NCBI GenBank assembly: GCA_014189685.1
Contig: DVAB01000023.1
Location: 15,346-79,345, forward strand
Length of the DNA: 64,000 nucleotides
Direction of reading: 5' to 3'
Source: Candidatus Naiadarchaeum limnaeum
GTDB taxonomy: Archaea; Undinarchaeota; Undinarchaeia; Undinarchaeales; Naiadarchaeaceae
This document shows, piece after piece, positions 4,502 through 55,259 of this stretch. Each line of letters opens with the position of its first letter. The stretch's first letter is position 1. The translations under genes were made by a program, and so were the position numbers. The notes under the pieces are model-generated. The model saw nothing but the letters and a program-made list of their open reading frames with translations, was not told where the DNA came from and did no database searches.

Positions 4502-5683
4502 ATGACGGGAATCGTAATCGTTGGAGCACAATTTGGGGATGAAGGAAAAGGAAAAATTGTTGATTATTTAGTTGACAGACTAAAGATTGACTATGTTGTT
4601 CGTTTCCAAGGCGGAAATAACGCCGGGCACACAGTTGTAGTTGGAAATGAAAAGTTCAAACTTCATCATGTTCCAAGCGGAGTTGTTCAGGGCAAGCAAT
4701 GTTTTCTTGGAAATGGGATGGTAATTGATCCAAAAGTTTTGATTGATGAAATCAATAATTTAAAAGAGCGCGGTATTAATCCAAAATTAACAATAAGTCC
4801 TCTTGCGCATGTAATAACAGAAAAGCACAAGGAATTAGATGCAGCCGATTCCAAAATCGGCACAACTAAAAGAGGAATCGGGCCTGCGTATTCTGACAAA
4901 ATTTCCCGCAGCGGCACGCGTTTTTCTGAACTGAATTCTGTTTATCCCAACTATTATTCTGAGCTCTCAAAATATATTGGAGACGTTTCTCTTAAAGTAA
5001 ATCAAGCTCTTGAGAAAAAGAAAAAAGTTTTATTTGAAGGCGCACAGGGAACTCTCTTAGACATCGATTTCGGAACATATCCATTTGTGACAAGCAGCAA
5101 CACAATTGCAGGCGGTGCTTGCGTGGGCGCAGGAGTTTCTCCAAAGAAAATCTCTTTAATTATTGGAGTTTCAAAAGCATATACAACTCGCGTTGGAAGT
5201 GGGCCATTTCCAACAGAATTAAAAAATGAGGTCGGTGAACAAATTAGAAATAAAGGCGCAGAATTTGGCACAACAACTGGCCGGCCGAGAAGATGCGGGT
5301 GGCTAGATGCGGTTATGCTTAATTATGCAATTCGTCTGAATGGCATTGATAGCATTGCTCTGACTAAGCTGGATATTCTTTCCGGATTAAAAGAATTAAA
5401 AATTTGCACTGCCTATGGATATAATGGAAAAATCTTGCGAACATTCCCTTTTGATGCAAAAATTCTTGAAAAATGCGAACCCATCTATGAAACTTTACAC
5501 GGTTGGCCAGAATTCAGTCACGAAGAATGGCAAAAATTTGCAAAATTGAAATTTGAAAGGTTGCCAAAAGAAATACGCAACTATATTTTGCTAATTGAAA
5601 GGCTTACCAAAACTCCAATATCACTCGTGAGCTTCGGCCCAGACAGGAACGATACTTTTATAAGGCACAAAATTTTAGTTTGA
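4502..5683 (+). CDS. purA: Adenylosuccinate synthetase
   Basis: GAQFGDEGKGKIVDYL, GGNNAGHTVV, GTTKRGIGPAY and GTTTGRPRRCGWLD are hallmark PurA motifs. Confidence 0.85.
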   Translation: MTGIVIVGAQFGDEGKGKIVDYLVDRLKIDYVVRFQGGNNAGHTVVVGNEKFKLHHVPSGVVQGKQCFLGNGMVIDPKVLIDEINNLKERGINPKLTISPLAHVITEKHKELDAADSKIGTTKRGIGPAYSDKISRSGTRFSELNSVYPNYYSELSKYIGDVSLKVNQALEKKKKVLFEGAQGTLLDIDFGTYPFVTSSNTIAGGACVGAGVSPKKISLIIGVSKAYTTRVGSGPFPTELKNEVGEQIRNKGAEFGTTTGRPRRCGWLDAVMLNYAIRLNGIDSIALTKLDILSGLKELKICTAYGYNGKILRTFPFDAKILEKCEPIYETLHGWPEFSHEEWQKFAKLKFERLPKEIRNYILLIERLTKTPISLVSFGPDRNDTFIRHKILV

Positions 5684-5695
5684 GCTGTGGGACTC

Positions 5696-6001
5696 ATGGT
5701 AAAAAAATTTTATATAATTCGTTCAGGAAAAAATCCAAAAAATTCTAAGGATACTGAACATGTTTTTACAGGAGCGAGCCCGAGACAGGCTGCTCTAAAA
5801 GCAGCAAAGCGCGGCTATACTAATTTTATGTTCCGTGAAAGAGGAAGGAGAAATTCTGATGGCACAGTTACAATCCATGTTTTTAAGGGAAGCTGGAAAT
5901 TGGTTAAATATCCGCGTGAAAATAAACCTTCATGGTTGCCTGATAAAATAAGAATGCCAGTTGTGAAGAAAGTGCAGACTGCAAGGGTTGAGGAAATCTA
6001 A
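5696..6001 (+). CDS. MC1-family archaeal chromatin protein
   Basis: HVFTGASPRQAALKAAKRG...IHVFKGSWKLVKYPRENKPSWLPDKIRMPVVKK closely resembles Methanosarcina MC1 as I recall it from memory. ATG at 5696 chosen inside the GTG-started ORF. Confidence 0.6.
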   Translation: MVKKFYIIRSGKNPKNSKDTEHVFTGASPRQAALKAAKRGYTNFMFRERGRRNSDGTVTIHVFKGSWKLVKYPRENKPSWLPDKIRMPVVKKVQTARVEEI

Positions 6002-6003
6002 TT

Positions 6004-6579
6004 TTATATCCCAAGCAATTTCGCACCCAAATAAATTATTATCAAATAATTTGCAATTATATGCACCACTGAAAATCTCACAACGCTTACGATTCCATAT
6101 CCCATAAAGAAATAGAAAAATCCTGTAAAAACATCATAACCAACTGTTAAAGCAATCGCAGTTAATCCTAAATTTTGCGCAAAGAATGCATAAGAAAGCG
6201 GCGCAAAATAAGCTATCCCAATAAATCCTAGAGCCGCAACCAAAACATCCTGCGGCCTCTCAATTGTGAAATATCCTGATAGTGTAAAAGCAGCTGCTCC
6301 AACTATTGCCCCGACTAAACTTCCATATCTTATTGAGGAAACAATTGTGAAAACACTAATCAATTCAATTCCAAGCGCAACTGGCATAAATCGTTCTGGA
6401 AAACGCGCAGCCGCACCTATTAAAATAAATCCGACAACAATTCCAAAGTCGCGCAGCGTGAATCTTGTAGTTGTAATTATATATGCAATAAAAATTAGCG
6501 CCGCAACTGTAACCGCGAGATATTTCAGCGTATCTTTTGTTAGTGGTAGTTGCGCCTTGTATCTTTTTGCTTTTGCCAT
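6004..6579 (-). CDS. Polytopic membrane protein of unknown function (paralog of the 49840-50409 and 54171-54713 genes)
   Basis: Five to six hydrophobic helices and no catalytic motifs. Similar size and topology to two other tRNA-adjacent genes in the window. Confidence 0.4.
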   Translation of the reverse strand: MAKAKRYKAQLPLTKDTLKYLAVTVAALIFIAYIITTTRFTLRDFGIVVGFILIGAAARFPERFMPVALGIELISVFTIVSSIRYGSLVGAIVGAAAFTLSGYFTIERPQDVLVAALGFIGIAYFAPLSYAFFAQNLGLTAIALTVGYDVFTGFFYFFMGYGIVSVVRFSVVHIIANYLIIIYLGAKLLGI

Positions 6580-7043
6580 TAAATTTTTTTCAACTCCTTT
6601 TGGTATTCAGGAAATTCAAGCATGAATTCATTTAGTCTCCATATTGGAACTATTGGAATTTTGTCCGCAAACACAATATTTTCCTCAAGAAAAGTTACAA
6701 TTAACGGGTAAATAGCCTTTTTCTTTAACTTTTTAAATTTTTTATAATTTTTTGCGCGCGCAGTTTGATCCTGTGCGGCCTTTTTGAGCGCAGTTGTTTT
6801 TCCAGGTCTCATATTCCACTTTTTGCAATCAATGCAAAGAATTTCATTAAAGCGCGCAGCAATGATATCAACCTCATGCCTTTTTTTATTTAAAGTAAAG
6901 CGCATATTTCTCTGAACCTCGAACCCATGCTCTTCCAAAATGCGCGCAACTATTTGTTCAAATTCCTGCCAAGCGTGCTCCTTTAAAATTTCTTCAATAT
7001 CTTTTCCGCTTGCAATCAAATTTTGAAGTTCTTGGAGGTCCAT
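6579..7043 (-). CDS. PD-(D/E)xK nuclease, Holliday-junction-resolvase Hjc-like
   Basis: E...HEVDIIAARFNEILCIDCKKW reproduces the Hjc E..D(12 aa)(E/D)xK spacing in a 154 aa protein. Confidence 0.45.
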   Translation of the reverse strand: MDLQELQNLIASGKDIEEILKEHAWQEFEQIVARILEEHGFEVQRNMRFTLNKKRHEVDIIAARFNEILCIDCKKWNMRPGKTTALKKAAQDQTARAKNYKKFKKLKKKAIYPLIVTFLEENIVFADKIPIVPIWRLNEFMLEFPEYQKELKKI

Positions 7044-7049
7044 AGAGAA

Positions 7050-7062
7050 CTCTTATATAATC
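7050..7062 (+). promoter_or_regulatory. TATA-box-like element (CTTATATAAT) about 25-35 nt upstream of the tRNA-iMet 5' end
   Basis: Archaeal-style TATA at the expected spacing from the tRNA start at 7086. Confidence 0.3.
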
Positions 7063-7085
7063 AATAGGTTATTAAAAATATCCGC

Positions 7086-7185
7086 AGCGAGGTAGGGCAG
7101 CCTGGAGTGCCCGTCGGGCTCATAGACACACCTTAAAGGGTGTTGAGGGACCCGAAGGTCGTTGGTTCAAATCCAACCCTCGCTA
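7086..7185 (+). tRNA. Initiator tRNA-Met (CAU) with a 25-nt intron at the canonical 37/38 position
   Basis: Acceptor AGCGAGG/CCTCGCT with A1:U72. D-stem GGGC/GCCC. Anticodon stem TCGGG/CCCGA has three consecutive G:C pairs (archaeal initiator hallmark). Loop CTCATA|intron|A. Intron GACACACCTTAAAGGGTGTTGAGGG contains a CACC/GGTG hairpin. T-arm GTTGG-TTCAAAT-CCAAC. CCA not encoded. A T-tract follows. Confidence 0.75.
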
Positions 7186-7854
7186 CTTTTTTACTACATC
7201 CAAAAAATTCTTAAAAATCTGCCACTCCACATATTCTTTTGGCTTTAACTTCACTGCCTCGTGGAAATCTGTGCAGTGCGGATCGTATTCCAGATAAGCA
7301 GTTCCGCTTTTTGGACTTTCCTCTGCATGGAATTGAACTCCATAAGTTATATCATTATAGCGCACAGCCTGAATGCAGTCTGGCGTTTTTGCTAAGACAT
7401 GGTATGACGTTTCTCCGTTGAAGCGCACAGCTTTTGTATGGTACTGGAAAACTATGAATGGGTTTGGTAAACCGAAAAATAGTTTATCATTTTTTCCAGA
7501 AGGCGTTATCTCAACTTGCCTCCATCCTATTTCAGCGTTTTCAAGCTTGTAAACTTCTGCGCCAAAAACTTCTCCAACAATCTGAGAGCCAAAACAAATT
7601 CCAAGCAGCGGCTTTTTTGCCTGAATTATTTGTTCTATCTGCTCTCTTAATTGCCTTGCATATGCGTGCCTTTCAGAGCTTGTATCTGCACCGCTTATTG
7701 CAAAAATATCATACTCATCTATACTTGGAAATTCAAACTTGCGCGCCTCAACAATACTCACTTTCAATGTTTTGTCAGCTAGGAGAAAAGCATCCCTAAT
7801 CTTTTCTGATTCCACAATTTTATTTTTATGGCAGTCGTAAATTAAAACGTTCAT
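7183..7854 (-). CDS. Class I glutamine amidotransferase-like protein (GATase1 / peptidase C26 fold)
   Basis: Nucleophile elbow GICFGSQ and YGVQFHAEE (His-Glu) in a 223 aa protein. It is the last gene of the LysW operon, in the position usually occupied by lysK. Confidence 0.55.
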   Translation of the reverse strand: MNVLIYDCHKNKIVESEKIRDAFLLADKTLKVSIVEARKFEFPSIDEYDIFAISGADTSSERHAYARQLREQIEQIIQAKKPLLGICFGSQIVGEVFGAEVYKLENAEIGWRQVEITPSGKNDKLFFGLPNPFIVFQYHTKAVRFNGETSYHVLAKTPDCIQAVRYNDITYGVQFHAEESPKSGTAYLEYDPHCTDFHEAVKLKPKEYVEWQIFKNFLDVVKK

Positions 7855-9014
7855 TTTGCAAAAGAATTTATAATAACTTTACTCACAGTTTCAACTTCTT
7901 TCTCGTTTATTATGAGAGGCGGCAAAAGTCTAATTGTGCTCATCCCAGATGTTTGCGCCAAAACTCCATTTTTCAAAGAAAATCCTAATTGTTCCTTAAC
8001 AGGAAACCTTGACTCAACAGCGATCATTGCTCCAATTCCACGCACTTCGCGGATTTTTTCATTTCCATTCAACTGCTCAAGATTTTTTCTCAGCTTTTCT
8101 CCCATCTTTGCGCCTTTCTGTACTAATTTTTCTTTTTCTAGAACATCTAAACATGCAGTTCCTGCTGCACAAGCAAGTGCATTTCCTCCAAAAGTCGAAG
8201 CATGCTCACCAACTTCTAATTTATCAAAAATTTCTGTTCGCGCAGCGCAAAGTCCTATTGGAACTCCGCCTGCCAAACCTTTTGCAACTGTTAAAATATC
8301 AGGCTCAATTCCGAAAGTTTGTGCTGCAAAATAATTTCCGGTTCTTCCAAAAGTTTGTATCTCGTCCAGAATCATTAAAACTCCTTTTTCATCGCAAAGT
8401 TCGCGAACTTCTTTCAAATAGTTTCTGTCTGCGAGTACTACTCCTGCTTCTCCCTGAACAGCTTCTAAAATTACTCCTGCGGTTCTTTCTGTAATTGCAT
8501 TTCTTAGCTCATCAATATTGTTAAAGCTAACGTGGGTAAACCCCGGAACTAAAGGCTCAAAAGGCTTTCTATATTTTGGCCGAAATGTTGCGCTCAGCGC
8601 TCCGAGTGTGCGGCCATGAAACCCATTTTTCATTGCAATAAAGTCTGTTTTGCCAGTTGCTTTTCTTGCAAGTTTTATTGTGCACTCAACAGCCTCTGTT
8701 CCGCTATTTCCAAGAAATATTTTTGAATTTTTAATTGGCAAAATTTTTGTAATCTTTTCAGCAAAGTTTGCCCGCGCCTCTGAATAAAAAATTCCAGGGG
8801 TTGTTATAATTTTTTGCGCTTGCTCTGAAACAGCTTTTGCAATATCTTTATTTCCGTGCCCAAGCAGTGCAACCCCATTTCCTGTTACGCAATCGATGTA
8901 CTCTTTTCCATTTTTATCATAAACAATCGCACCGCTGCCGCGAACAATTTCAACATCCCTCTTTGCGTATGTGTTCGCAATTAAATTATCCTCAATTTCT
9001 TTGAAAGATTTCAT
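7851..9014 (-). CDS. argD: Acetylornithine / LysW-gamma-lysine aminotransferase (class III PLP aminotransferase)
   Basis: GNSGTEAVECTIKLARK, FHGRT, LDEIQTFGRTG and TVAKGLAGG are class III aminotransferase motifs. Operon context. Confidence 0.8.
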   Translation of the reverse strand: MKSFKEIEDNLIANTYAKRDVEIVRGSGAIVYDKNGKEYIDCVTGNGVALLGHGNKDIAKAVSEQAQKIITTPGIFYSEARANFAEKITKILPIKNSKIFLGNSGTEAVECTIKLARKATGKTDFIAMKNGFHGRTLGALSATFRPKYRKPFEPLVPGFTHVSFNNIDELRNAITERTAGVILEAVQGEAGVVLADRNYLKEVRELCDEKGVLMILDEIQTFGRTGNYFAAQTFGIEPDILTVAKGLAGGVPIGLCAARTEIFDKLEVGEHASTFGGNALACAAGTACLDVLEKEKLVQKGAKMGEKLRKNLEQLNGNEKIREVRGIGAMIAVESRFPVKEQLGFSLKNGVLAQTSGMSTIRLLPPLIINEKEVETVSKVIINSFAK

Positions 9015-9826
9015 TGTTCCACTACTGTTCCCTCTCCATCCAGAGCTTTTGCAATTGGATTTTCAACCACTCCACTTGCTATTACAAATCTTTTCACTCC
9101 AAATTCCATTGCTTCTTTTGCTGCAAGCAATTTCATTACCATTCCCCCTGAGACTTCTTTCATTTTCTGCTCCAACTGCTGAGCAGGAATGCGCCTTATT
9201 ACTTTTTTGTTTGAATCATAAACTCCTGGAACATCGCTAAAGTTCAAAACAATTTCAGCCCCAAGCTCTTTTGCAATAAAAGCAGCTGCTCTATCAGCAT
9301 TTACATTTACAATTTCATTTTGTTCAGTAAGAGCCATCGGCCCTATAACTGGAACAAACTTTCTTTCAATCAAATCAGCAAACCTTTTTTTATCAATGCC
9401 TGTAATCTTTCCAGTATAGTCTCCTTCAAGTATCATTTTTCTTCCACTCTCAATTATTTTTATTCTGTCTTTTCTCTGAGCGTAAATTGCATTGCTTAAA
9501 CCAATCGCAGTAATCCCTTCTTTTTTAAAAGTTGAAACAATTTCATTGTTCAAATCATTTGCAGCTCTGTTAAATATTTCAACAGTTTCTTTGTCAGTAT
9601 ATCTGCTTCTTATTCCCTGAACAGATATGACCCATCTAGGTTCTTTTCCTAATTTTCTTGTCAATTCATCAGCCTGGGGGCCAACTCCATGCACCAAAAC
9701 GCATGGCTCATTCAAACTCTTTAAATCCCTTGCAATATTTTCAATGCCGTCTGCAATGCTTCCCCCAACTTTAATAACAATAGTCATTTTCAGAAAATTA
9801 AATCGGGTGCAACCCAAAAAATTCAA
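9011..9826 (-). CDS. argB: Acetylglutamate kinase / LysZ (amino acid kinase family)
   Basis: MTIVIKVGGS...VLVHGVGPQ kinase N-terminus, about 270 aa. Operon context. Confidence 0.8.
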   Translation of the reverse strand: MNFLGCTRFNFLKMTIVIKVGGSIADGIENIARDLKSLNEPCVLVHGVGPQADELTRKLGKEPRWVISVQGIRSRYTDKETVEIFNRAANDLNNEIVSTFKKEGITAIGLSNAIYAQRKDRIKIIESGRKMILEGDYTGKITGIDKKRFADLIERKFVPVIGPMALTEQNEIVNVNADRAAAFIAKELGAEIVLNFSDVPGVYDSNKKVIRRIPAQQLEQKMKEVSGGMVMKLLAAKEAMEFGVKRFVIASGVVENPIAKALDGEGTVVEQ

Positions 9827-10844
9827 GCCCTTCTGTTTCTTTAAATCCAGAAATTATGTTCATTGCCTGAACTGCTTGTCCAGATGCGCCCTTCATTAAA
9901 TTATCAAGTGCGCTCATGACAACAAGCCTGTTTGAATTTTCATCGCGCTCAAAACCAACATCGCAATAATTTGTTCCGGTTAATAATTTTGGCTCAGGAT
10001 ATCTATAAATTCCATCTTTCTCTTTTACAATTCTTACAAAAGGCTCTCCTGAGTAATATTTTCTGTAAACTTGCCATATATCTTTTTCAGTTAAATTTTT
10101 ATTTAAGAAAACATGGCAAGTGCTTAAAATACCTCGGACTAAATCAACAGCATGTGGACTAAAAGAAATTACTGGCCTATTTCCATTAAAGTTTAGCTCC
10201 TGCTCCATTTCGCCCGTGTGCCTGTGGAAACTTGGCTTGTAAGCTCGAACAACATTTGCGCGCTCAGCATGCATATCTGCTAGGTCTGCTTTGCTCCCGC
10301 TTGCAGAACTTCCAACTTTTGAATCAACAACAATATGTTCTGTTTCAATTAAACCCTCTTTTGCTAATGGATATAGAGCAAGAATTGCACTTGTTGCTAA
10401 ACATCCTGCTCCTGAAATATAATTTGCCTTTTTCATCTCTTCCCTGTGTAATTCTGGAATTCCATAAACAAATTTTTCAATTAATTCAGGGCATTCGTGC
10501 TTGTGTCCATACCACTTCTCATATTCTTTTGGATTTTTTAATCTGAAATCTGCGCTCAAATCAACAATTTTCTCAGCATGCTTTATGTAAGTTCTCATAT
10601 TTTTCATTGCAACACCATGCGGAACTGCTGAAAAAATTAAATCGTAATTTCCAAGCTCTGAATTTTTTATGAATTTTAATTCAGTTTTTTTTCTTAGATT
10701 TGGATGCACCTTTGAAACAGAATGGCCCGCATTTGAATCAGAAGTTACAGCTTTAATATCAAATTCTGGCTGATTTAATCTTTTCCCCATTAAATTTCTG
10801 CCAGTATATCCACTTGCCCCGACAATTGCCACTTCAATGCTCAT
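9798..10844 (-). CDS. argC: N-acetyl-gamma-glutamyl-phosphate reductase / LysY
   Basis: [20 protein letters not shown] Rossmann N-terminus and catalytic-Cys region [13 protein letters not shown]. Confidence 0.8.
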
Positions 10845-11692
10845 CTTTTTGCTACCCTCAAAACATAATCGATAATTAATTTTGGAAGCTCAGGATTGCT
10901 CTTTATAGTATTTCTGAATTCAGGAGTGTGGTTTATTTCATGGACTAAAAATTCCCCTTCCTTTGCATTTTCCATTAAATCAACAGCTAGAACTCCCCCT
11001 CCAACAGCTTCTGAGGCTTTTGCACAAATTTCTTTTAACTCATTAGTTATTGGGCATGGCTCTGCTCCCCCTCCTCGAGCTGTATTTGTAATCCAGTGCT
11101 TAGAGATTCTGTAAATCGCTGCAACTACTTCATTGTCAATTACAAATGCTCTTATATCGCGGCCCGGTTTTTTTATATACTCCTGTATGTAGAAAACTGA
11201 GTGCACAAATTCCCCAAGGCTCTGCTTGTGTTCTAAGAGAGCTTCTGCTGCCTCTCTATCAGACGCTTTTGCAATCAATCTTCCCCAGCTTCCAGAAACC
11301 GGCTTTAGCACAACAGGATATCCAAACTCTTCAATTGCTTTTAGTGCGCTTTCTTGAGAAAACGCAATCACTGTTTTTGGAGTTGGTACGCCAGCTTTTT
11401 TTAAGAGTAAAGAGGTCCATGCTTTATCTCCACATATAGACGAAACTTTAAAGTTATTCACAGTTGGAACATTGCACTGCTCATAGCATGCGACTGAATA
11501 CAATCCGCGAATAAAAGAAATACTTCTGTTTAAAACAACATCAAACTGAATATTGCAAACTGCAGGATCAATATCGAAAGAACATTCTCTATCGTCCACC
11601 ATTGTAACTTTTGCATTTCTTTTTGCCAGTTCCTCAAGTAGCATTTTCTCTTCTTCTCTTATCCTCGAATATAGGAAGCCAACCTTTGTCAT
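10841..11692 (-). CDS. lysX: LysX / ArgX, RimK-type ATP-grasp ligase that loads the amino-acid precursor onto LysW
   Basis: ATP-grasp motifs ([22 protein letters not shown]). Size of about 283 aa. Sits between argC and the homoaconitase genes next to lysW. Confidence 0.75.
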
Positions 11693-12177
11693 AATTTGAA
11701 TCCTTTGTTTTTCTTTATGTGCGCAATCAAACCGCCATCATTTAGAATTTCAAGCATTACAGGCGGAAGTGCAAACGCTTTTAATTTATTTCCTCTTGTT
11801 TGATTATTAATTATCCCATTTTCTAAATAAACTTCTAATTCGTCTCCGTCGTTTATTTGAGAAGTATCAGCTTCTAAAATTGGCAATCCGATATTTATTG
11901 CATTTCTATAGAAAATTCTTGCAAAACTTTGTGCTATCACAGCTTTTACTCCTAAATGTTTTAGAACAATTGCAGCATATTCCCTACTAGAGCCTGTTCC
12001 AAAACCAATTCCTCCTGCAACGAAATCTCCCTGCTTTACATTTTTTGCAAAATCAGGATTAACATCGATTAAAGTGTATTTAGCAAGCTCATCCAAATTG
12101 TTTCTTAAGTGATAAACTCTGCCAGGGCAGAGCAAATCTGTGCTTATATTATCTCCAAATTTCCAAACTCTTCCCAT
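11689..12177 (-). CDS. Homoaconitase / 3-isopropylmalate dehydratase small subunit (LeuD family)
   Basis: [22 protein letters not shown] is a LeuD-type N-terminus. Paired with the large subunit. Confidence 0.75.
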
Positions 12178-12178
12178 T

Positions 12179-13435
12179 TTACAAATACTCCCGCGGGTCT
12201 GTTATTATTCCCTCAATTATTGTTGCAGCTGCTGTTGCAGGACTGCCAAGATAAACTGAAGCATTTGGATTTCCCATTCTTCCCTTATAATTTCTATTCT
12301 GCGTTGAAAGACAAACCTCTCCATCCCCTAAAATTCCTGCATGAATTCCAGGGCAGGCTCCGCATCCTGGCGCTGTAACAACTCCACCTGTTTCCATGAA
12401 TATATTCACTAAGCCTTCTTTTGCAGCTTGCATGTAAACCTCTGCAGATGCAGGGCAAACAATAAATCTAGTTCCTTTTGCTCTTTGTTCGCCTTTTAAA
12501 ATTTTTGCAGCTATTCTTAAATCTTCAATTCTTCCGTTTGTGCAAGTCCCAATATAAACTTGATTTACTTTCACTTCTCCAATTTCTGAAATTTTTTTAA
12601 CATTTGCAACTGAATGCGGAGCCGCAACAACTGGTTCTAACCCACTTGCATTTATTTCAATTACTCTTTCATAATTTGCATTTTCATCAGCTCTAATTTC
12701 CCTGAACTGATTTTCACGGTCGTGTGCTTTCAAATAAGTTCTTGCAGTTTTATCTGTTTCAATCAATCCAACTTTTCCTCCTGCCTCAACCGCCATGTTG
12801 CTCAGTGTAAATCGAGATTCCATTGAAAGATTTTTAATCGTGCTTCCTCTGTATTCAAGAGATTTGTAATTCGCTCCATCCTCCCCAAGCATTCCAATCA
12901 AAGTTAGTATGATATCTTTTGAGTAAACACCTTTTGATAATTTTCCATCAACTTGTACTCTAATTGTTTCTGGAACCCTAAGCCAAGTTTTTCCCAAATG
13001 CATTGCAACTGCAACATCTGTACTCCCCATTCCTGTTGCAAAGCAAGAAAGTGCTCCTGCTGTAACTGTGTGTGAATCTCCTCCAATTAAAACAGTTCCA
13101 GGCATAGCATAATTCTCAACTAAAACCTGATGGCAAATTCCGCTTCCAGCCTCGTGGAATTTTGACCCTGTTTTTTCTGTGAATTGTCTTAGAACAACCT
13201 GAGCATTTGCCAATTCAGCCCGTGCTGCCGGAGCGCTATGGTCAACAAAGAAAATTGTATTTTTCGGGTTTGAGAGATTAAACTGATTGTCCTCTATTCT
13301 TTTTATTGCCAAAGGCCCGCTTCCATCATGGGCCATGGTTGTTCTAATTTTAGCTATTACTATGTCTCCTGCTCTCGCATTCTTTTTTGTGAGAGAGTTT
13401 GCACTGAGTATTTTTTCAGCTAATGTTTGTTCCAT
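12179..13435 (-). CDS. Homoaconitase / 3-isopropylmalate dehydratase large subunit (aconitase family)
   Basis: GICHQVLVEN, GGDSHT, GTCTNGRIEDL and CPGCGACPG Fe-S cluster ligand motifs. Confidence 0.8.
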   Translation of the reverse strand: MEQTLAEKILSANSLTKKNARAGDIVIAKIRTTMAHDGSGPLAIKRIEDNQFNLSNPKNTIFFVDHSAPAARAELANAQVVLRQFTEKTGSKFHEAGSGICHQVLVENYAMPGTVLIGGDSHTVTAGALSCFATGMGSTDVAVAMHLGKTWLRVPETIRVQVDGKLSKGVYSKDIILTLIGMLGEDGANYKSLEYRGSTIKNLSMESRFTLSNMAVEAGGKVGLIETDKTARTYLKAHDRENQFREIRADENANYERVIEINASGLEPVVAAPHSVANVKKISEIGEVKVNQVYIGTCTNGRIEDLRIAAKILKGEQRAKGTRFIVCPASAEVYMQAAKEGLVNIFMETGGVVTAPGCGACPGIHAGILGDGEVCLSTQNRNYKGRMGNPNASVYLGSPATAAATIIEGIITDPREYL

Positions 13436-13450
13436 AATCTATAATGAAAA

Positions 13451-13615
13451 TTATTCTCCCCAATCTTCTCCAGCAACTTCTGCAACTCTTAATTCTCCTG
13501 ATTGCGGATTCACAACTTCAAGCTCCACCCCACATTCTGGGCAATCAATTATTTCACCCTTCATTGCTCCGTTTGGAATATTTATTTGAGCTCCGCATTC
13601 AATGCATTCTGTCAA
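13451..13615 (-). CDS. lysW: LysW amino-group carrier protein (54 aa, TTG start), not present in the supplied ORF track
   Basis: Reverse-strand translation gives (M)TECIECGAQINIPNGAMKGEIIDCPECGVELEVVNPQSGELRVAEVAGEDWGE*. Two CxxC pairs and the diagnostic C-terminal EDWGE. The start abuts the homocitrate synthase stop. Confidence 0.65.
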   Translation of the reverse strand: MTECIECGAQINIPNGAMKGEIIDCPECGVELEVVNPQSGELRVAEVAGEDWGE

Positions 13616-13616
13616 C

Positions 13617-14738
13617 TCAAATCACCTCATCCTTTCTTATTTTTTCAACTAACAAAACTAGTTCTGAATCTCCAATCTCCCCGCTTGTTTCTGCAGCCTC
13701 TCTAACACTTTCCGCAAGCATAGATATTTGCTCTTCCTGCAATTTTATCCCTAATTCGTTAAGCTTATGCCTTATTAAGTTTTTGCCACTAAATTTTCCC
13801 AATACCAATCTCCTCTTATTTCCAACAGATTCTGGGGGAACTGGCTCATAAGCGTGCGGATTTTTTAGAACAGCTGCTGTGTGAATTCCTGCTGTATGAG
13901 TAAAAGCATGTCTTCCAACTATTGGAGATCGGTTGCTTAAAGGAATTCCACTTGCTTCTGCAACATATTCTGAAATTTCCTTTAGCATTTCTGTTTTCAC
14001 ATCTAATTGAACATTGTAAGCATATTTCAAAGCCATCACAGTCTCTGCTAACGGGCATATTCCAACTCTCTCCCCAAGCCCGTTAACTGTACACTGAATC
14101 TGGTCAGCGCCTGCCTGCACTCCTGCAATTGCATTTGCAATCGCTAATCCAAAATCATTGTGGCAGTGCAAGTCTATTCCAACTTTTAAGTATTGCAGAC
14201 TTTCAACCAGTTGTACTATTTTTTGCGGAGTTGCAATTCCAACAGTATCTGTAATGCTTATTCTGTCGGCCCCGGCGTTTACAGCTTTTTCAATTATTCT
14301 TCTCCAGACATCGTTTGGTGTTCTTGAAGAATCCTCTGGGGTAAATCTAACTTTCAGGCCCCTGTTTAGTGCATAAGATATTGAGTTAACTAAAATTTCC
14401 TCTAGATATTCTCTAGTTACGTTTAATTTGCTCTCAATCTGGATATCGGATGTTGGCATGTTAATTACAACGCGATCGCAGCCAGCTTCTGCAACAGCAT
14501 CTATATCCTCAGTCTTTGCTCTTGCATATCCAAGTGTCTCAAAATCATATCCCAATTCGCAAATGGCTTTTGAGGCTTCCATAGCACCCTTAGAACTTGA
14601 TGGAAATCCAACTTCTATTGAATTAACTCCAAACCCTCCAAGCAAGCTTGCAATTTTTATTTTCTGCTCTATGCTGAAAGCTACCCCGGGTGTTTGCTCT
14701 CCCTCGCGCAGTGTAGTATCCAATATCATAACCTTCAT
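13617..14738 (-). CDS. Homocitrate synthase (short LeuA/NifV-family, no LeuA regulatory domain)
   Basis: ILDTTLREGEQTPGV, HCHNDFGLA and HTAGIHT DRE-TIM motifs in 373 aa. First gene of the LysW operon. Confidence 0.7.
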   Translation of the reverse strand: MKVMILDTTLREGEQTPGVAFSIEQKIKIASLLGGFGVNSIEVGFPSSSKGAMEASKAICELGYDFETLGYARAKTEDIDAVAEAGCDRVVINMPTSDIQIESKLNVTREYLEEILVNSISYALNRGLKVRFTPEDSSRTPNDVWRRIIEKAVNAGADRISITDTVGIATPQKIVQLVESLQYLKVGIDLHCHNDFGLAIANAIAGVQAGADQIQCTVNGLGERVGICPLAETVMALKYAYNVQLDVKTEMLKEISEYVAEASGIPLSNRSPIVGRHAFTHTAGIHTAAVLKNPHAYEPVPPESVGNKRRLVLGKFSGKNLIRHKLNELGIKLQEEQISMLAESVREAAETSGEIGDSELVLLVEKIRKDEVI

Positions 14739-14834: not shown

Positions 14835-15512
14835 ATGACTGAAAAAAAAAGCATTTCGCGCGCAGTGGAGAAATTTATTCTAGACGAACCACTGCTGGAG
14901 GATTTTCTTGCACGTAATTTAATTAACCAGAGTGCTCTTGCTCGAACTTTAATCCCTCGCGTAGAGAAAGAAATTGGGCAGAAAGTAAAGCCACAAGCTG
15001 TTATAATGGCAGTCAAAAGATTTGCAGCAGACTCGAAGGAACATATTCAAACTAAAAAAATGCGCGAAGTTCTTGGAAAAAGCACGATTAATTTGAAGAG
15101 TGGAATAGCAGATATCGCAGTTGAGAAAACAGATGGGCTTTTTAGTTTGCTTGAGGACTTAACAAGGAAAGTAAAAACACACCGAGGCGAAGTTTTGAGT
15201 GTTGTTGAAGGCCAAACAGAAGCAGCAATTATAACTGAAGAAAAATATGTTGACGATATAATCAAAAAATTGCCGAAAAAGTCTGTTCTAAAAGTCGAGC
15301 GAAACATTGTGGATTTGCATCTCCTTTGCCCCCCGGACTTTTGGAACGCTCCTGGAATAATTTATTTTGTCACAAAAAGACTTGCGCTTTCAAATATAAA
15401 CATAATTGATCTGCTCACAACTCCAACTGAATTTTCAATTTTAGTTAGAAAGGAAGATGCTTCAAGAGCATTTGAATCAATTAGTAATTTGATTGAGGAG
15501 TGCAAAGCATGA
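14835..15512 (+). CDS. Conserved hypothetical protein, possibly an ACT-domain regulator
   Basis: 225 aa ORF with no strong motifs. Preceded by an AT-rich TATA-containing intergenic region. The stop overlaps the rnhB start. Confidence 0.3.
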   Translation: MTEKKSISRAVEKFILDEPLLEDFLARNLINQSALARTLIPRVEKEIGQKVKPQAVIMAVKRFAADSKEHIQTKKMREVLGKSTINLKSGIADIAVEKTDGLFSLLEDLTRKVKTHRGEVLSVVEGQTEAAIITEEKYVDDIIKKLPKKSVLKVERNIVDLHLLCPPDFWNAPGIIYFVTKRLALSNINIIDLLTTPTEFSILVRKEDASRAFESISNLIEECKA

Positions 15513-23853: not shown

Positions 23854-24573
23854 ATGGAAGAAGATAAAATTGAAGAAGAATTTGTTGCTGAGAAGCCAAC
23901 GTTCAATATAGAACAGATTTTGCAGAGTGAGCGCGCTTGGGAATATATTTTGCTTGATATTGTAAAATCTGAAGAGCTTGACCCTTGGGATATTGACATT
24001 ACAAAATTAACACAAATTTATCTTGATAGGATTCAAAAAATGAAGGAACTAGATTTAAGAATTCCTGCCAGAATTATTTTAGCAGCAGCAATTCTTTTGC
24101 GGTTAAAATCTGAAACTCTTTCACTAACCAAATCAGAAGAGGGTATGTTTGAGGAATTATTTGGGCAAGAAGAGGAAATTCCAGCAGAAGAGCCAGAGCC
24201 TGTTCCTCTTTTAGATTTAAGATTGACACGAAAGCCATTGCGCAAAATTACGCTTGCAGATTTGATCGAAACGCTTGAAAAAGCAATGGAAAAATCACAT
24301 CGTGAAAGAGCTCTGCCATACCAAGTTGCACTAAATTTGCCAGAGGTTGATATTTCTGAAATGATTGAAACTTTATACAGAAAAATTTATAACATGCGCG
24401 AGGAAAAAATTCCTTTCAGGGCATTGTTGCCACAAAATACCACAAGCCATGCTGTTGATACTTTTCTCCCTCTACTGCATTTGGCAAATGAACAAAGGAT
24501 TGATTTAGAACAGGAAGGAATTTTTTCAGAGCTTTTTATTTTAAAGCAGAAGATAAAGGCTAACGCTTCATAG
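23854..24573 (+). CDS. scpA: Segregation and condensation protein A (kleisin)
   Basis: Begins 2 nt after the smc stop. ELDPWDIDITKL and acidic linker typical of ScpA. Confidence 0.65.
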   Translation: MEEDKIEEEFVAEKPTFNIEQILQSERAWEYILLDIVKSEELDPWDIDITKLTQIYLDRIQKMKELDLRIPARIILAAAILLRLKSETLSLTKSEEGMFEELFGQEEEIPAEEPEPVPLLDLRLTRKPLRKITLADLIETLEKAMEKSHRERALPYQVALNLPEVDISEMIETLYRKIYNMREEKIPFRALLPQNTTSHAVDTFLPLLHLANEQRIDLEQEGIFSELFILKQKIKANAS

Positions 24574-25864
24574 CTTCGCTTTGTAGATTTCTTGGCACCC
24601 TGATACGGTATTTGTCAATAATGTACGCACATCTTCCTAGGGGGCTACCAAAGATGAATTTTTCCTTTTCTTCTTCTGGAAACTTTATTTGTTGTATTTT
24701 TCTTTTAGAATCTTTGTTATAAGCGGCACATACGCTCCTTAATTCTCTTGGTGCTCTAAAAACATTGATAATTATTGGAATTCTATAGTGTGTATCCATT
24801 TTCTGCCGGAACGTTTCTATTATATCCCTATCAAAATTGTACATCTCATCTCTAAAAACTTCAAATAGCCCATTTAATTTGTCAAAATGTGGTTTGTCCG
24901 TTACTATAAATGTCTTAGAAGGTCTCCCATGAAACAAACTTTGAACAGCCTCCTTAGGAGTTCTTGGTCCGAATGCAACAACTAACCTCTTTTTAATTTC
25001 TTGTATGAACCCTATCTTTGCTAGTTCATCAACAGCTCTTGATGCATCTCCATCCATTCTTTCTGCAATATCTTTCACCTGTGCAGCCGCTTCTAATGGT
25101 TTTGTGGTAAATCTGTAGACTACAAGCCCCTCGCTTGAGGCGTACATCCCACGAAGACTTGCTTTTAAAAATCTGCTCATCCATTTATTTCTCATCTCAC
25201 CAACATTTGGCGCACTTTCATAAAGCCTTTCATATACATGAGCAAAAACTCCTTCGGGATTTGAAAGCATTCTTTTGAAATCTTTCGAACTCTTCTTTGT
25301 GCATTCTTCAAAAACAAACTTTAGTAGTAGTTTTGCGGCTGCAATTGCACAGTAAATATTTTTCTTACTTGGGTTTTCGGGATAGATGTTCTTTTCAAAT
25401 ACATTACAAATATCTGCAATTGTTCCACCTCTAAAGTGACTGGGCTCTACTCCACCTTTTAGCAATATACAAATCTCTTCTATTTTTTTCTTTGGTATTC
25501 TCGCATTTCCATAGTAGTGATTTATTTCAAAAAATGGTAAAAAACCATAGACACCTATGTCTCTGGCGCCATTGTAGTTTAATTCATTCCCAAAAACAAA
25601 GCCGAAATCTTTAAGGGCATCTGCATCCTTAAGATAATCGTACATTTTTTTGCGCTCATCTTTTGATTCATCCTTTTCGTCTTCATGGATATGATAGAGG
25701 TATTCTATTTTTCCTGTCCACAAAGGGATGACTACAAAATTAGTCTTTAACCATTTAGCGAATTTTTTAAGAGGTGTTTTTGTTATAGAATAAATTTGAT
25801 AAATAAGTTTAAGAAGTTCTATTATGGACATCTGTCCTGTCCTATCGCTTCTGAGACTTGGCAT
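24560..25864 (-). CDS. Hypothetical 434 aa protein with no recognisable domain
   Basis: Long ORF with good coding character. No catalytic or fold motif identified by eye. Confidence 0.35.
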   Translation of the reverse strand: MPSLRSDRTGQMSIIELLKLIYQIYSITKTPLKKFAKWLKTNFVVIPLWTGKIEYLYHIHEDEKDESKDERKKMYDYLKDADALKDFGFVFGNELNYNGARDIGVYGFLPFFEINHYYGNARIPKKKIEEICILLKGGVEPSHFRGGTIADICNVFEKNIYPENPSKKNIYCAIAAAKLLLKFVFEECTKKSSKDFKRMLSNPEGVFAHVYERLYESAPNVGEMRNKWMSRFLKASLRGMYASSEGLVVYRFTTKPLEAAAQVKDIAERMDGDASRAVDELAKIGFIQEIKKRLVVAFGPRTPKEAVQSLFHGRPSKTFIVTDKPHFDKLNGLFEVFRDEMYNFDRDIIETFRQKMDTHYRIPIIINVFRAPRELRSVCAAYNKDSKRKIQQIKFPEEEKEKFIFGSPLGRCAYIIDKYRIRVPRNLQSEAMKR

Positions 25865-30464: not shown

Positions 30465-31142
30465 ATGACATTAAATTATTCAGATAAAAATGTTGTAATT
30501 GATGATTTTGTCGGAGGGAAAAAAGGAACTCAATTGATAAAAGAGCTGAGAGCTGTTGGTGCATTAATGTACGTCGATTCAGTTCAACTAACACTTGATG
30601 AAATTAGAAGAAGCATTATAGAACAAATAGTCAATAAGCAATATGGTTTAATGATTTTTATTGAAAGCGGCGGACTGCTAATCCTAGGAACCACAGAGAT
30701 AGTGTCCCATGCTAGGAGAACGGCTGTGCTTCCAGCCAGCAGCCATGTCATAGACTCTTATAAGGAGATAGAAACCTTTCTAAGCTTAGCAAAGCAGATT
30801 ATTAAATCAAGCAAAAGAATTGCGATAGTTGAAGGTGATGTAGGTGAGGCTAGTCACTCTTATAATAGATTGAAGGATTTGAAGAACAGAATTATTGGCC
30901 TTAATAGGAAAGCATCTGTAGAAATTATTGTTGGAGTTGTTGCGCGAAAATTTGCGAATAGAAGACTTTTTAATGTTATAGGAGTTATTGTGAAAAATAT
31001 AGATAAATTATCTGATATTGTTCATGAAATTCGTGATGTCAACTATCGCTCTGCTCCTATGCGAAAGCTTCGGGCTCTCTGGAAGCACAGAAAAAGAAGA
31101 AAACCTACTTCATTTCTTCAATCTGTTTCAGGGCGTCCTTAA
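30465..31142 (+). CDS. Hypothetical protein with a basic C-terminal tail
   Basis: 225 aa with no motif recognised. The C-terminus overlaps the thrS 3' end. Confidence 0.3.
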   Translation: MTLNYSDKNVVIDDFVGGKKGTQLIKELRAVGALMYVDSVQLTLDEIRRSIIEQIVNKQYGLMIFIESGGLLILGTTEIVSHARRTAVLPASSHVIDSYKEIETFLSLAKQIIKSSKRIAIVEGDVGEASHSYNRLKDLKNRIIGLNRKASVEIIVGVVARKFANRRLFNVIGVIVKNIDKLSDIVHEIRDVNYRSAPMRKLRALWKHRKRRKPTSFLQSVSGRP

Positions 31143-37944: not shown

Positions 37945-38370
37945 TTGAGAACTTTTAAATACTTTCCGAACCATAAATCAAATATGCCAAGAAGAAAAAG
38001 CCCTGCCCAAGATACGCTTTCATTGAGACCAGAGTTTACAACTATTTTTCAAAATATAGCCGATCTTAACTTTTTTGATAGGCACTCATATGTTGCTTAT
38101 CCAAGTCCATATATTGCCATAGTCTATGGTATAGCTGGAAGGATTCCTTCAAATATAGAGGAAGCTTTTAGAGGTATTGCAGCCTTTAAGAATAAAGCAC
38201 ATGTTGAAGTTAGAGAAGTAAATTTAGTTTTACTTTTTAAAAATATAAGAGTTAGAGATGCGTGGCTTAAGCTTTTTCGAAAAATAAAAGATGAACGGTC
38301 AGAATTTGAGGGCGTTTTGAAGAGCGGGCGTAGATTTAAGAGTACTCTAAGTAGATATAAAATAGTTTAG
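37945..38370 (+). CDS. Hypothetical protein
   Basis: 141 aa ORF with no motif recognised. Confidence 0.25.
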   Translation: MRTFKYFPNHKSNMPRRKSPAQDTLSLRPEFTTIFQNIADLNFFDRHSYVAYPSPYIAIVYGIAGRIPSNIEEAFRGIAAFKNKAHVEVREVNLVLLFKNIRVRDAWLKLFRKIKDERSEFEGVLKSGRRFKSTLSRYKIV

Positions 38371-41832: not shown

Positions 41833-41875
41833 GACAAATTTATTTAAGTAATTCTTCTTTATAATTCTATGTTAA

Positions 41876-54953: not shown

Positions 54954-55259
54954 ATGGCAGAATTTATTGTTGCAAAGATTGATGAAATTCCTAATGGAAC
55001 CGGAAAAGTTGTATTTGCAGGAGACAAGCCTATAGCACTTTTTAATATAAATGGAACTTTTTATGCTATTGACAATACATGCGCGCACAGAGGCGGCCCT
55101 CTTGGCGAAGGAGATTTGGGTGGTACAATAGTTACATGCCCTTGGCATGGCTGGCAGTTTGATGTAACAACCGGAGTCTCTCCATTTGGGCCAACAGTTG
55201 AGAAGTATGAAGTTAAGCTTGACTCACAGACACAGGAGATAAAAGTTGTTGTTCCATAG
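54954..55259 (+). CDS. Rieske [2Fe-2S] ferredoxin-like protein
   Basis: CAHRGGPL...CPWHGWQF Rieske ligand boxes. Start trimmed to MAEFIV. Confidence 0.6.
   Translation: MAEFIVAKIDEIPNGTGKVVFAGDKPIALFNINGTFYAIDNTCAHRGGPLGEGDLGGTIVTCPWHGWQFDVTTGVSPFGPTVEKYEVKLDSQTQEIKVVVP

Follow-up and report, generated by a model that had tools for sequence, protein, structure and literature searches.

The genes described here form an operon for lysine biosynthesis of the LysW-carrier (alpha-aminoadipate) type, possibly used for ornithine/arginine as well, in which the M20 metallo-hydrolase LysK appears to have been replaced in place by a class-I glutamine amidotransferase (GATase)/peptidase-C26-fold cysteine hydrolase, probably with the same function. 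On balance, we favor the view that lysine or ornithine is freed from LysW by this GATase-like protein, acting as a non-orthologous cysteine isopeptidase; we infer its substrate, its reaction and that these genomes lack a further LysK. A preliminary description of the sequence had raised such a replacement, and comparative context together with a predicted fold like that of gamma-glutamyl peptidase 1 (GGP1) supports it, making the predicted activity a somewhat better than even prospect. No published report of a GATase-fold replacement of LysK was found in the literature.

The operon comes from an uncultured archaeon represented in groundwater metagenomes. In the window, the 64-kb stretch of DNA that was analyzed, nine tightly packed ORFs run on the minus strand from 14738 to 7183 in the 5′ to 3′ order homocitrate synthase (HCS), lysW, hacA, hacB, lysX, lysY/argC, lysZ/argB, lysJ/argD and the GATase-like gene (Table 1). 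The preliminary description had listed nine co-directional, packed genes in this order, and all are ORFs at the coordinates given in Table 1, with families assigned by Pfam/NCBIfam. Its reading of lysW (54 aa, TTG start, two CxxC pairs, EDWGE) is borne out, with the Zn_ribbon_LysW threshold passed, as is that of the terminal gene as GATase1/peptidase-C26-type, which matches Pfam GATase and Peptidase_C26 and encodes a Cys-His-Glu triad and both quoted motifs, GICFGSQ and FHAEE. It was mistaken in calling lysW unannotated: gene callers predict the same 54-aa product from the identical contig in ENA. Nor does "complete", its word for the operon, hold: the homoisocitrate dehydrogenase (HICDH) gene is missing, as it had itself remarked, and LysN (2-oxoadipate aminotransferase) is not encoded in the operon. 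An Iso_dh domain is absent from all ORFs of at least 110 aa in the 64-kb window (Pfam), and tblastn of two HICDH proteins against the same DNA gave no match at E < 0.1.

Table 1. Genes of the LysW operon and its divergently transcribed neighbor.
Feature	Position	Strand	Product and family matches
Homocitrate synthase (operon gene 1)	13617..14738	-	373 aa; Pfam HMGL-like 253 bits, HCS_D2 88 bits
lysW, amino-group carrier protein	13451..13615	-	54 aa, TTG start; Pfam Zn_ribbon_LysW 58 bits
hacA, homoaconitase large subunit	12179..13435	-	418 aa; hacA_fam 561 bits (cutoff 385.7); Pfam Aconitase
hacB, homoaconitase small subunit	11689..12177	-	162 aa; LEUD_arch 187.5 bits (cutoff 109); Pfam Aconitase_C
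LysX, ATP-grasp ligase	10841..11692	-	283 aa; TIGR02144 LysX_arch 331 bits (cutoff 275.6)
LysY/ArgC-type reductase	9798..10844	-	348 aa; NCBIfam TIGR01850 argC 403.6 bits (cutoff 233.6)
LysZ/ArgB-type kinase	9011..9826	-	271 aa from TTG; NCBIfam NF010662 211.9 bits (cutoff 194)
LysJ/ArgD-type class-III aminotransferase	7851..9014	-	387 aa; TIGR00707 argD family 438 bits (cutoff 410)
GATase1/peptidase-C26-fold protein	7183..7854	-	223 aa; Pfam GATase PF00117 75 bits, Peptidase_C26 33.5 bits
225-aa protein, divergently transcribed	14835..15512	+	weak C-terminal ACT-domain signal

Since the product of the first gene scores below the equivalog cutoffs of both LysS_fung_arch (382 bits) and LEU1_arch (410 bits; NCBIfam), its assignment to HCS versus IPMS rests on operon context. 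LysW exceeds the Zn_ribbon_LysW gathering score of 27 and lies just under the NCBIfam carrier_LysW_Arch cutoff (72.7 bits vs 75); its CxxC pairs occupy residues 4-7 and 25-28, a GAGGTGA motif precedes its TTG start, and its C-terminal EDWGE is unchanged in 6 loci. LysX, the only LysX/ArgX paralog in the operon, combines Pfam LysX_preATP_grasp and RimK domains and is assigned the loading of alpha-aminoadipate, and possibly glutamate, onto the C-terminal Glu of LysW. The LysZ product passes the [LysW]-aminoadipate/[LysW]-glutamate kinase model (NF010662), with an ambiguous start: TTG at 9826 yields the length in Table 1, and the later start chosen by gene callers yields 258 aa. LysJ scores 357-373 bits against the NCBIfam LysJ models, its nearest relatives beyond its own lineage are the LysJ proteins of Asgard and Bathyarchaeia lysW operons, and its gene is joined to the GATase-like gene by an ATGA overlap.

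The position directly after lysJ is held by an M20 gene in other archaea. Freyarchaeum (Asgard) has the order lysW-lysX-lysY-lysZ-lysJ-M20 and a Bathyarchaeia locus argG-argH-lysW-lysX-lysY-lysZ-lysJ-M20; both M20 genes pass TIGR01902 and have "[LysW]-lysine hydrolase" as their best match (292 and 250 bits, respectively), and the EDWGE tail of LysW is the same in GATase-type and M20-type operons. Because the post-lysJ slot holds M20 in Asgard and Bathyarchaeia and GATase here, the pattern is that expected for an in-place non-orthologous displacement; an M20 and a GATase-like gene were never found together in an examined lysW operon. That no M20 LysK is present at the locus had been claimed at the outset, and this holds throughout the 64-kb window: Pfam finds no Peptidase_M20 domain in ORFs of at least 110 aa, and tblastn of two LysK proteins, which match each other at 1e-82, gave no match at E < 0.1. 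Likewise, the DNA examined from lineages with the GATase-like gene, about 129 kb in all, contains no M20 domain or LysK-like sequence. According to papers from the Nishiyama group, Thermus lysK reportedly lies outside the main cluster, so absence of LysK from the operon is by itself weak evidence.

Among relatives, the GATase-like gene directly follows lysJ in all eight with usable context, at 40-86% identity, and thus in every relative that could be read. Proteins at 80, 75, 52, 49, 45 and 40% identity are all encoded immediately 3′ of lysJ; at one further locus, the contig carries only the first 21 residues (86% identical), preceded by a lysJ with 78% identity. Where readable, the start overlaps the lysJ stop, except in locus L008, where it lies 2 nt downstream. 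At least three operon layouts among the window and its relatives keep this adjacency: HCS-lysW-hacAB-lysXYZJ-GAT, lysW-HCS-hacAB-HICDH-lysX-lysX2-lysYZ-DUF2000-lysJ-GAT and lysW-lysXYZJ-GAT. The lysW-linked proteins, 10 by assignment, form one clade (191/200 NJ bootstraps), with gene context examined for all but P0008 and P0009 (and P0003); the next-closest homologs, at 27-36% identity, are encoded outside lys operons. The family is tiny: among 1.84 billion proteins, only one cluster representative (clustering at 50% identity) exceeds 160 bits.

The divergently transcribed neighbor is also conserved. It reaches 20.5 bits with Pfam ACT_7 and 17.5 bits with DUF7523, both under the gathering score, and is 57% identical to the divergent neighbor of the L005 operon; two further loci (L096 and L101) have comparable ACT_7/ACT_9/DUF7523 proteins in the equivalent position, and L008 has a 224-aa protein without a Pfam match, paired by position, not sequence. 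This conserved neighbor of lysW operons is a candidate amino-acid-sensing regulator.

The GATase-like protein has an intact catalytic triad, Cys87 (GICFG), His176 and Glu178 (QFHAEE), which is invariant in alignments A1, A2 and A5, as are the GxCxG elbow, Gly55 and His139; judged by these active-site residues, it is likely an active enzyme. An AlphaFold2 model (pLDDT 95) has 3l7n, 1o1y and the GGP1 entries 9k7i-l as top Foldseek matches, placing stand-alone GATases, Arabidopsis GGP1 among them, as the closest predicted folds. At position 91, equivalent to Q104 of GGP1, all 44 generic stand-alone GATases have Q, but the lysW-linked clade has Q, H or E (6, 3 and 1 proteins, respectively), and its S1 pocket thus appears altered at this position. 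Residues C8, K10, S16, E17, R38, H63, D191 and C194 are invariant and specific to the clade, as are an N-terminal motif, DCHKNK..ESEKI, and a C-terminal motif, DP.C..F...LKP..Y.EW..F.NF. With pI values of 4.8-6.3, the proteins of the clade are acidic overall, so net charge lends no support to a basic surface docking the acidic LysW.

In the mechanism that we propose, LysX, LysZ, LysY and LysJ would build lysine onto LysW at the gamma-carboxyl of its C-terminal residue, Glu54, and the product, LysW-gamma-lysine, would formally be an N5-substituted glutamine residue. Cys87 would attack the gamma-glutamyl isopeptide carbonyl, lysine (or ornithine) would depart free, like ammonia in the glutaminase reaction, and hydrolysis of the LysW-gamma-glutamyl thioester, for which His176/Glu178 would provide the general base, would set LysW free again. 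In canonical GATases, the glutamyl group bound in the S1 pocket has a free alpha-amino group; as a counterpoint, the alpha-amino group of Glu in LysW-gamma-Lys is peptide-bonded to Gly53. Folylpoly-gamma-glutamate hydrolase (C26) provides a precedent for an N-acylated P1 Glu.

Alternatively, an ordinary glutaminase or amidotransferase subunit could aid the pathway indirectly, e.g., by producing from glutamine the glutamate that LysJ and 2-oxoadipate aminotransferase use as amino donor, with a normal M20 LysK encoded elsewhere in the genome. The protein passes the Pfam GATase gathering score, its best NCBIfam matches are generic "glutamine amidotransferase" models, and it shares its triad and most elements of the S1 pocket with glutamine-hydrolyzing enzymes; furthermore, HICDH and LysN are also missing from the operon, so the missing step need not be filled locally. 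We nevertheless consider this explanation unlikely: none of the operons has an ammonia-using synthase partner, the otherwise invariant substrate-binding Gln91 varies in the lysW-linked clade, and a free glutaminase leaves unexplained both the exact occupancy of the LysK slot and the mutual exclusion of M20 and GATase among operons. This mutually exclusive occupancy is also unaccounted for if, as seems less probable still, a gamma-glutamyl hydrolase acts on LysW conjugates in proofreading or regulation, not in biosynthetic release; it could clear LysW of mis-loaded amino acids or stalled intermediates, or unload it under lysine excess. Such a hydrolase shares the context evidence and the gamma-glutamyl peptidase fold relationship with the isopeptidase that we favor, and the single LysX of the window may load both alpha-aminoadipate and glutamate, creating a need for editing, but it requires an unseen LysK elsewhere, and we know of no proofreading enzyme of this type in characterized LysW systems. 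Very improbable is a chance neighbor with no functional link, GMP synthase subunit A or another housekeeping GATase: even though archaeal GMP synthase subunit A tops the sequence-profile PDB matches (1e-18) and the operon is followed, about 1.5 kb downstream, by purA, the scores fall far short of the PRK00758 (58.9 bits vs 198) and guaA_Nterm (61.4 vs 172) cutoffs, the 188-aa GuaA-A lacks the clade-specific N- and C-terminal elements, the lysW-linked proteins form a separate clade, and, despite operon rearrangements, the gene still starts at or within the lysJ stop in relatives down to 40% identity.

No firm grouping with GMP synthase subunit A was found, and that identity is largely refuted by the sub-cutoff scores, the separate clade, the coupling to lysJ and the lack of a GMP synthase ATP-pyrophosphatase subunit (GuaA subunit B) in the 64-kb window.

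The favored isopeptidase resembles LysK of Thermus thermophilus, Sulfolobus and Thermococcus in its predicted reaction, hydrolysis of the gamma-glutamyl isopeptide that joins LysW Glu54 to lysine or ornithine through the alpha-amino group of the latter, and in the location of its gene directly after lysJ, as in the Asgard and Bathyarchaeia operons. By contrast, LysK is an M20 di-metal hydrolase with no sequence similarity to the GATase-like protein, whose class-I GATase fold is flavodoxin-like and whose Cys-His-Glu triad presumably acts through a covalent thioester intermediate. Arabidopsis GGP1 cleaves the gamma-glutamyl isopeptide bond of glutathione via a Cys-thioester, with Q104 binding the alpha-carboxylate of the gamma-glutamyl substrate (PMC12958103). 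The GATase-like protein is similar to GGP1 in fold (Foldseek E 2e-15, TM about 0.8) at only about 21% sequence identity, and shares the triad and a main-chain oxyanion hole with GGP1, PuuD and folylpoly-gamma-glutamate hydrolase. It differs from this group in its proposed substrate, a protein C-terminus with a peptide-linked Glu alpha-amino group instead of a free gamma-glutamyl group, in the location of its gene inside an amino-acid biosynthesis operon and, relative to GGP1, in the S1 Gln that its clade does not conserve. Finally, GuaA-A and other glutamine amidotransferase subunits have the same fold and triad, but the GATase-like protein is ~35 residues longer than GuaA-A, with its own N- and C-terminal motifs, and is tied to lysW operons instead of a synthase partner.

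The nine co-directional minus-strand ORFs lie exactly where the preliminary description had placed them, from 14738 down to 7183 (see table), and LysX, LysY, LysZ and LysJ, encoded in one operon with lysW, pass or approach their NCBIfam cutoffs. The α-aminoadipate (LysW) pathway is represented by homocitrate synthase (HCS), both homoaconitase subunits (HacAB), LysW, LysX, LysY, LysZ and LysJ. The operon had been called complete, which it is not: homoisocitrate dehydrogenase (HICDH) is missing and no 2-oxoadipate aminotransferase (LysN) is encoded within it, a class-I/II aminotransferase gene of the window being a mere candidate for LysN. The start of lysZ is ambiguous (9787-9826): the TTG of the longest ORF, which overlaps lysY by 29 nt, gives 271 aa, and public gene calls use a downstream start that gives 258 aa. 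At the distal end, the lysJ stop overlaps the ATG of the GATase-like gene as ATGA; the 3' end of a convergent tRNA overlaps the TAG stop of the GATase-like gene by 3 nt. Judging by its sequence, the tRNA would have a CAT anticodon and, after it, an intron of about 25 nt; ARAGORN missed this tRNA in 6900-7400.

Features of the window: the nine operon genes, in operon order, followed by other features
Feature	Position	Strand	Family matches and remarks
Homocitrate synthase		-	Pfam HMGL-like and HCS_D2
LysW	13451-13615	-	PF21344, 58 bits (gathering score 27); NF041070, 72.7 bits (cutoff 75)
Homoaconitase large subunit		-	hacA_fam, 561 bits
Homoaconitase small subunit		-	LEUD_arch, 187 bits
LysX		-	TIGR02144, 331 bits (cutoff 275.6)
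LysY/ArgC		-	404 bits (NCBIfam)
LysZ		-	[LysW]-aminoadipate/glutamate kinase, 212 bits (cutoff 194)
LysJ/ArgD		-	438 bits (cutoff 410)
GATase-like protein, 223 aa	7183-7854	-	Class-I GATase, 75 bits; peptidase C26, 33.5 bits
tRNA, 100 nt	7086-7185	+	Rfam, 52 bits
ORF divergent from the lysW operon	14835-15512	+	Weak C-terminal ACT-domain and DUF7523 signal
Second amino-acid cluster	38367-42790		Class-III aminotransferase (402 aa); overlapping 446-aa protein; ornithine carbamoyltransferase (448 bits); divergent carbamate kinase (382 bits)
Class-I/II aminotransferase	43523-44713		Candidate LysN
carB (1075 aa) and carA (369 aa), overlapping	55213-59542	-	Carbamoyl-phosphate synthase
ORFs of 191-434 aa	18918-20003	-	No Pfam match
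	24560-25864	-	No Pfam match
	6004-6579	-	No Pfam match
	30465-31142	+	No Pfam match
	50646-51611	+	No Pfam match

The 54-aa carrier is confirmed as LysW, a small zinc-ribbon protein, as had been read from its TTG start, two CxxC pairs and EDWGE tail: it scores well above the gathering score of PF21344 and just below the NCBIfam cutoff for NF041070. The protein reads LTECIECGAQ...DCPECG...AGEDWGE, with the CxxC pairs at C4/C7 and C25/C28, and GAGGTGA lies upstream of the start codon. The gene is not unannotated, as had been thought, since lysW is already called on an identical ENA contig; this contig occurs both among ENA re-assemblies of groundwater metagenomes of the Rifle type and in a TPA assembly at NCBI. 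The γ-carboxyl of the C-terminal Glu of LysW carries the pathway substrate, and the acidic EDWGE tail is invariant in six LysW proteins, from operons with the GATase-like gene and operons with an M20 hydrolase alike.

The gene divergent from the operon has no curated family match above threshold. Divergent neighbors of this kind, 199-229 aa long and with the weak ACT-domain and DUF7523 signal, also occur at related loci (L005, 206-895; L008, 1863-2537; L096, 6406-7077) and at the Bathyarchaeia locus L101 (1748-2347); the window protein is 57% identical to that of L005, and the L008 protein, which has no Pfam match, is grouped by position, not sequence. The ACT-like protein may be a conserved lysine/arginine-sensing regulator.

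LysK and HICDH had been reported missing from the operon, and both absences extend to the whole 64-kb window. From 18.9 kb to the end of the window, a Pfam scan of ORFs of 110 aa or more found neither a Peptidase_M20 nor an Iso_dh domain; nor is there one among the existing Pfam calls for the identical ENA contig, which cover most of the first 18.9 kb. Two LysK queries from outgroup operons, which find each other at 1e-82 in tblastn, had no match at E < 1 in about 129 kb, made up of the window and all loci retrieved for the GATase-bearing lineage; two HICDH proteins gave no tblastn match at E < 0.1 in the window.

The second amino-acid cluster resembles a module for ornithine/citrulline catabolism or one of arginine-deiminase-like type; its 446-aa protein, which overlaps the aminotransferase, has no family match and only weak P-loop-like matches. 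Together with ornithine carbamoyltransferase, carAB suggests that the organism handles ornithine and citrulline, which would agree with a LysW operon that makes ornithine as well. Among the ORFs that lack a Pfam match, those of 361 and 434 aa have no NCBIfam match either, and the 191-aa ORF, beside an Mrr_cat gene, is kept downstream of the operon in related contigs.

The assignment of the last gene product to the GATase1/peptidase-C26 fold with a Cys-His-Glu triad is upheld by PF00117 (75.4 bits; threshold 22.8) and PF07722 (33.5 bits; threshold 20.5), with both GICFGSQ and QFHAEE present. The triad motifs, the nucleophile elbow GxCxG (G85-I-C87-F-G89) and HxE (Q174-F-H176-A-E178), are invariant in the lysW-linked clade and kept in at least 98% of 44 generic homologs; Cys87, His176, Glu178, the GxCxG elbow, Gly55 and His139 are invariant in every alignment. 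The protein matches no M20 family in Pfam or NCBIfam and does not belong to NF003367/TIGR01902; it is therefore a functional analog of LysK at most, not a family member. An AlphaFold2 model built from a 52-sequence alignment (pLDDT 95, pTM 0.92) has a flavodoxin-like α/β/α fold, with Foldseek TM scores of 0.78-0.82 to 3l7n, 1o1y and 9k7i. Stand-alone GATases take the first places in the PDB, ahead of GMP synthase subunit A and TrpG/PabA: SMU.1228c (3l7n), TM1158 (1o1y), the Arabidopsis γ-glutamyl peptidase GGP1 (9k7i-l), DnfC and MsGATase.

GGP1 cleaves the γ-glutamyl isopeptide bond of glutathione via a Cys-thioester; in its S1 site, S68, H70, Q104, Q156 and D157 serve the glutamyl α-carboxylate and α-amino group, the α-carboxylate being held by Q104 and main-chain amides (PMC12958103). 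The position equivalent to Q104, residue 91, is Gln in all 44 generic homologs and Gln, His or Glu in six, three and one members of the lysW-linked clade; the window protein itself carries Q91, and the remaining GGP1-type S1 contacts are main-chain atoms. The residues C8, K10, S16, E17, R38, A56, H63, D191 and C194 do not vary within the clade and are seldom found outside it. An altered substrate pocket would agree with the variable S1 Gln and with the residues specific to the clade that follow strand 1. C8, C194 and H63 are essentially absent from all homologs outside the clade, and H9 adjoins C8; C8, H9, H63 and C194 may contribute to a disulfide, to a metal site or to the surface that binds LysW. 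Net charge was taken as a proxy for a basic LysW-docking surface; the clade is acidic overall (pI 4.8-6.3), so such a surface gets no support from it.

The family is small and known from metagenomes only. A word-indexed search of 5.8 billion proteins gave nine clusters at 44-100% identity, one of them a 169-aa fragment of the window protein, and then a cliff to 39% or less; when 1.84 billion cluster representatives were searched exhaustively with a profile, a single one scored above 160 bits and a second tier lay at 128-159 bits. The close group shares an N-terminal DCHKNK..ESEKI motif and a C-terminal DP.C.DF...LKP..Y.EW..F.NF motif. A scan of a genome collection with the clade alignment, one of whose two patterns (..GVQFH.) is generic, yielded, among the matches listed, GATases of 24-40% identity and none from this lineage. 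In a neighbor-joining tree of 67 sequences, the ten proteins of the lysW-linked group, including P0008 and P0009, which were assigned to it without neighborhood reading, are monophyletic in 191 of 200 bootstraps, with the second tier as sister group.

The association with lysW clusters, which the original proposal had named among its tests, is conserved: in every clade member with a readable neighborhood, the GATase-like gene lies directly downstream of lysJ (see table). At readable junctions the lysJ stop and the start of the GATase-like gene overlap, except in L008, where the start comes 2 nt after the stop. The attachment to lysJ has therefore been kept through at least three operon architectures, one of which lacks, over the 12 kb read, any gene for HCS or homoaconitase, and another of which has two LysX paralogs.

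Gene order around the GATase-like gene (GAT) in relatives, with identity to the window protein
Relative	Identity	Locus	Gene order
P0002	80%	L091	lysY-lysZ-lysJ-GAT
P0004	75%	L008, NCBI GCA_053529985.1	nine-gene order identical to window
Relative found in a metagenome scan with an N-terminal-only alignment	86% over 21 on-contig residues; lysJ 78%	L089	lysZ-lysJ-GAT
P0121	52%	L099/L100	lysX-lysY-lysZ-lysJ-GAT
P0006	49%	L090	lysJ (59% identical)-GAT
P0007	45%	L005-L007	lysW-HCS-hacA-hacB-HICDH-lysX-lysX2-lysY-lysZ-DUF2000-lysJ-GAT
208-aa protein	40%	L096, NCBI GCA_043814055.1	lysW-lysX-lysY-lysZ-lysJ-GAT

The most divergent full lysW operon, at L005, has further peculiarities: its second LysX paralog (5649-6704) is extended at the N-terminus by about 85 aa, a DUF2000 gene (8456-8863) is inserted between lysZ and lysJ, and two overlapping genes past the GATase-like gene (10644-12130) encode proteins of 259 aa, with a weak methyltransferase signal, and 236 aa, with a B3_4 domain.

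Linkage to lysW does not extend beyond the clade, whose members are at least 40% identical to the window protein. Second-tier homologs were rejected as lysW-linked: P0131 (28%), P0136 (33%, BLAST) and P0122 (36%), on DPANN-like, small-genome archaeal contigs, lie in unrelated neighborhoods. The sister group (27-36% identity; L094, 10001-10702; L098, 8001-8705; L095, 1540-2208) has LD.H...E..KI and P..Y.EW..F.NF motifs and contexts unrelated to lysW, e.g., between DNA primase and GINS. The S1 Gln is variable there too, and these proteins likewise may not be glutamine-hydrolyzing.

To our knowledge, every studied LysW/AmCP lysine and arginine system releases its product by the M20 metallo-hydrolase LysK. 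The nearest LysJ proteins outside the lineage (52-57% identity) belong to Asgard archaea and Bathyarchaeia. The complete genome of Candidatus Freyarchaeum deiterrae has lysW-lysX-lysY-lysZ-lysJ-Peptidase_M20 and a Bathyarchaeia MAG has argG-argH-lysW-lysX-lysY-lysZ-lysJ-Peptidase_M20; for both M20 proteins the best match is '[LysW]-lysine hydrolase' (292 and 250 bits), and both clear the TIGR01902 cutoff. What follows lysJ is thus either an M20 LysK or the GATase-like gene, and never both in the loci seen. The GATase-like protein is probably the enzyme that releases lysine or ornithine from LysW in place of LysK. That the operon lacks HICDH and LysN as well would suit an ordinary glutaminase or amidotransferase alongside a LysK gene located elsewhere in the genome; this reading is unlikely, as it leaves unexplained both the exclusive occupancy of the LysK slot and the absence of any synthase partner. 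A variant of the releasing role, a proofreading or regulatory LysW-deacylase, is more doubtful still and would require a LysK that is not seen.

In the releasing reaction, LysW-γ-lysine would be, chemically, an N5-substituted glutamine at a protein C-terminus: Cys87 of the GATase/C26 active site would attack its γ-carbonyl, the amine, lysine or ornithine, would depart as leaving group, and the LysW thioester would be hydrolyzed with His176/Glu178, regenerating LysW. By analogy with γ-glutamyl transpeptidases, and given the covalent acyl-enzyme chemistry of the fold, the thioester could instead be passed straight to a new α-aminoadipate or glutamate, coupling release to re-loading without ATP and leaving LysX for priming only. 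Such transpeptidation is highly improbable; we know of no amino-group-carrier-protein pathway in which the carrier is recycled in this way. GMP synthase subunit A is essentially excluded: scores fall far below the equivalog cutoffs (PRK00758, 58.9 bits against 198; TIGR00888, 61.4 against 172), the protein falls in its own clade, and the window has no GMP_synt_C/NAD_synthase-type gene for a subunit B partner. Scores, phylogeny and conserved coupling likewise all but rule out chance adjacency to lysJ.

If the releasing role is correct, LysW product release would have its first enzyme outside the M20 family, a cysteine hydrolase of the GATase fold, and the operon, otherwise conserved, would give a clean example of non-orthologous gene displacement. 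It would extend class-I GATase/C26 substrates from small γ-glutamyl compounds to a protein C-terminus, and might offer a metal-independent releasing enzyme for engineered AmCP pathways. Pathway-reconstruction tools would now score these archaea as lacking the last lysine/ornithine step, possibly as auxotrophs, which the finding would correct. Testing should be easy: the GATase-like protein and LysW are small and soluble-looking, and LysW-γ-Lys is obtainable enzymatically or synthetically. The replacement is not described in the literature searched, outside which most subscription journals lie; in a 2026 GapMind preprint, LysW comes up solely in connection with Thermococcus kodakarensis LysZ (TK0276).

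The finding would be one of an analogous enzyme for a known step of a known pathway, and the proposed chemistry has a precedent in GGP1, which has the same fold and cleaves γ-glutamyl isopeptides. A P1 glutamate with an acylated α-amino group has its precedent in the substrate of folylpoly-γ-glutamate hydrolase; in LysW-γ-lysine, the α-amino group of the P1 Glu would similarly be acylated, by Gly53.
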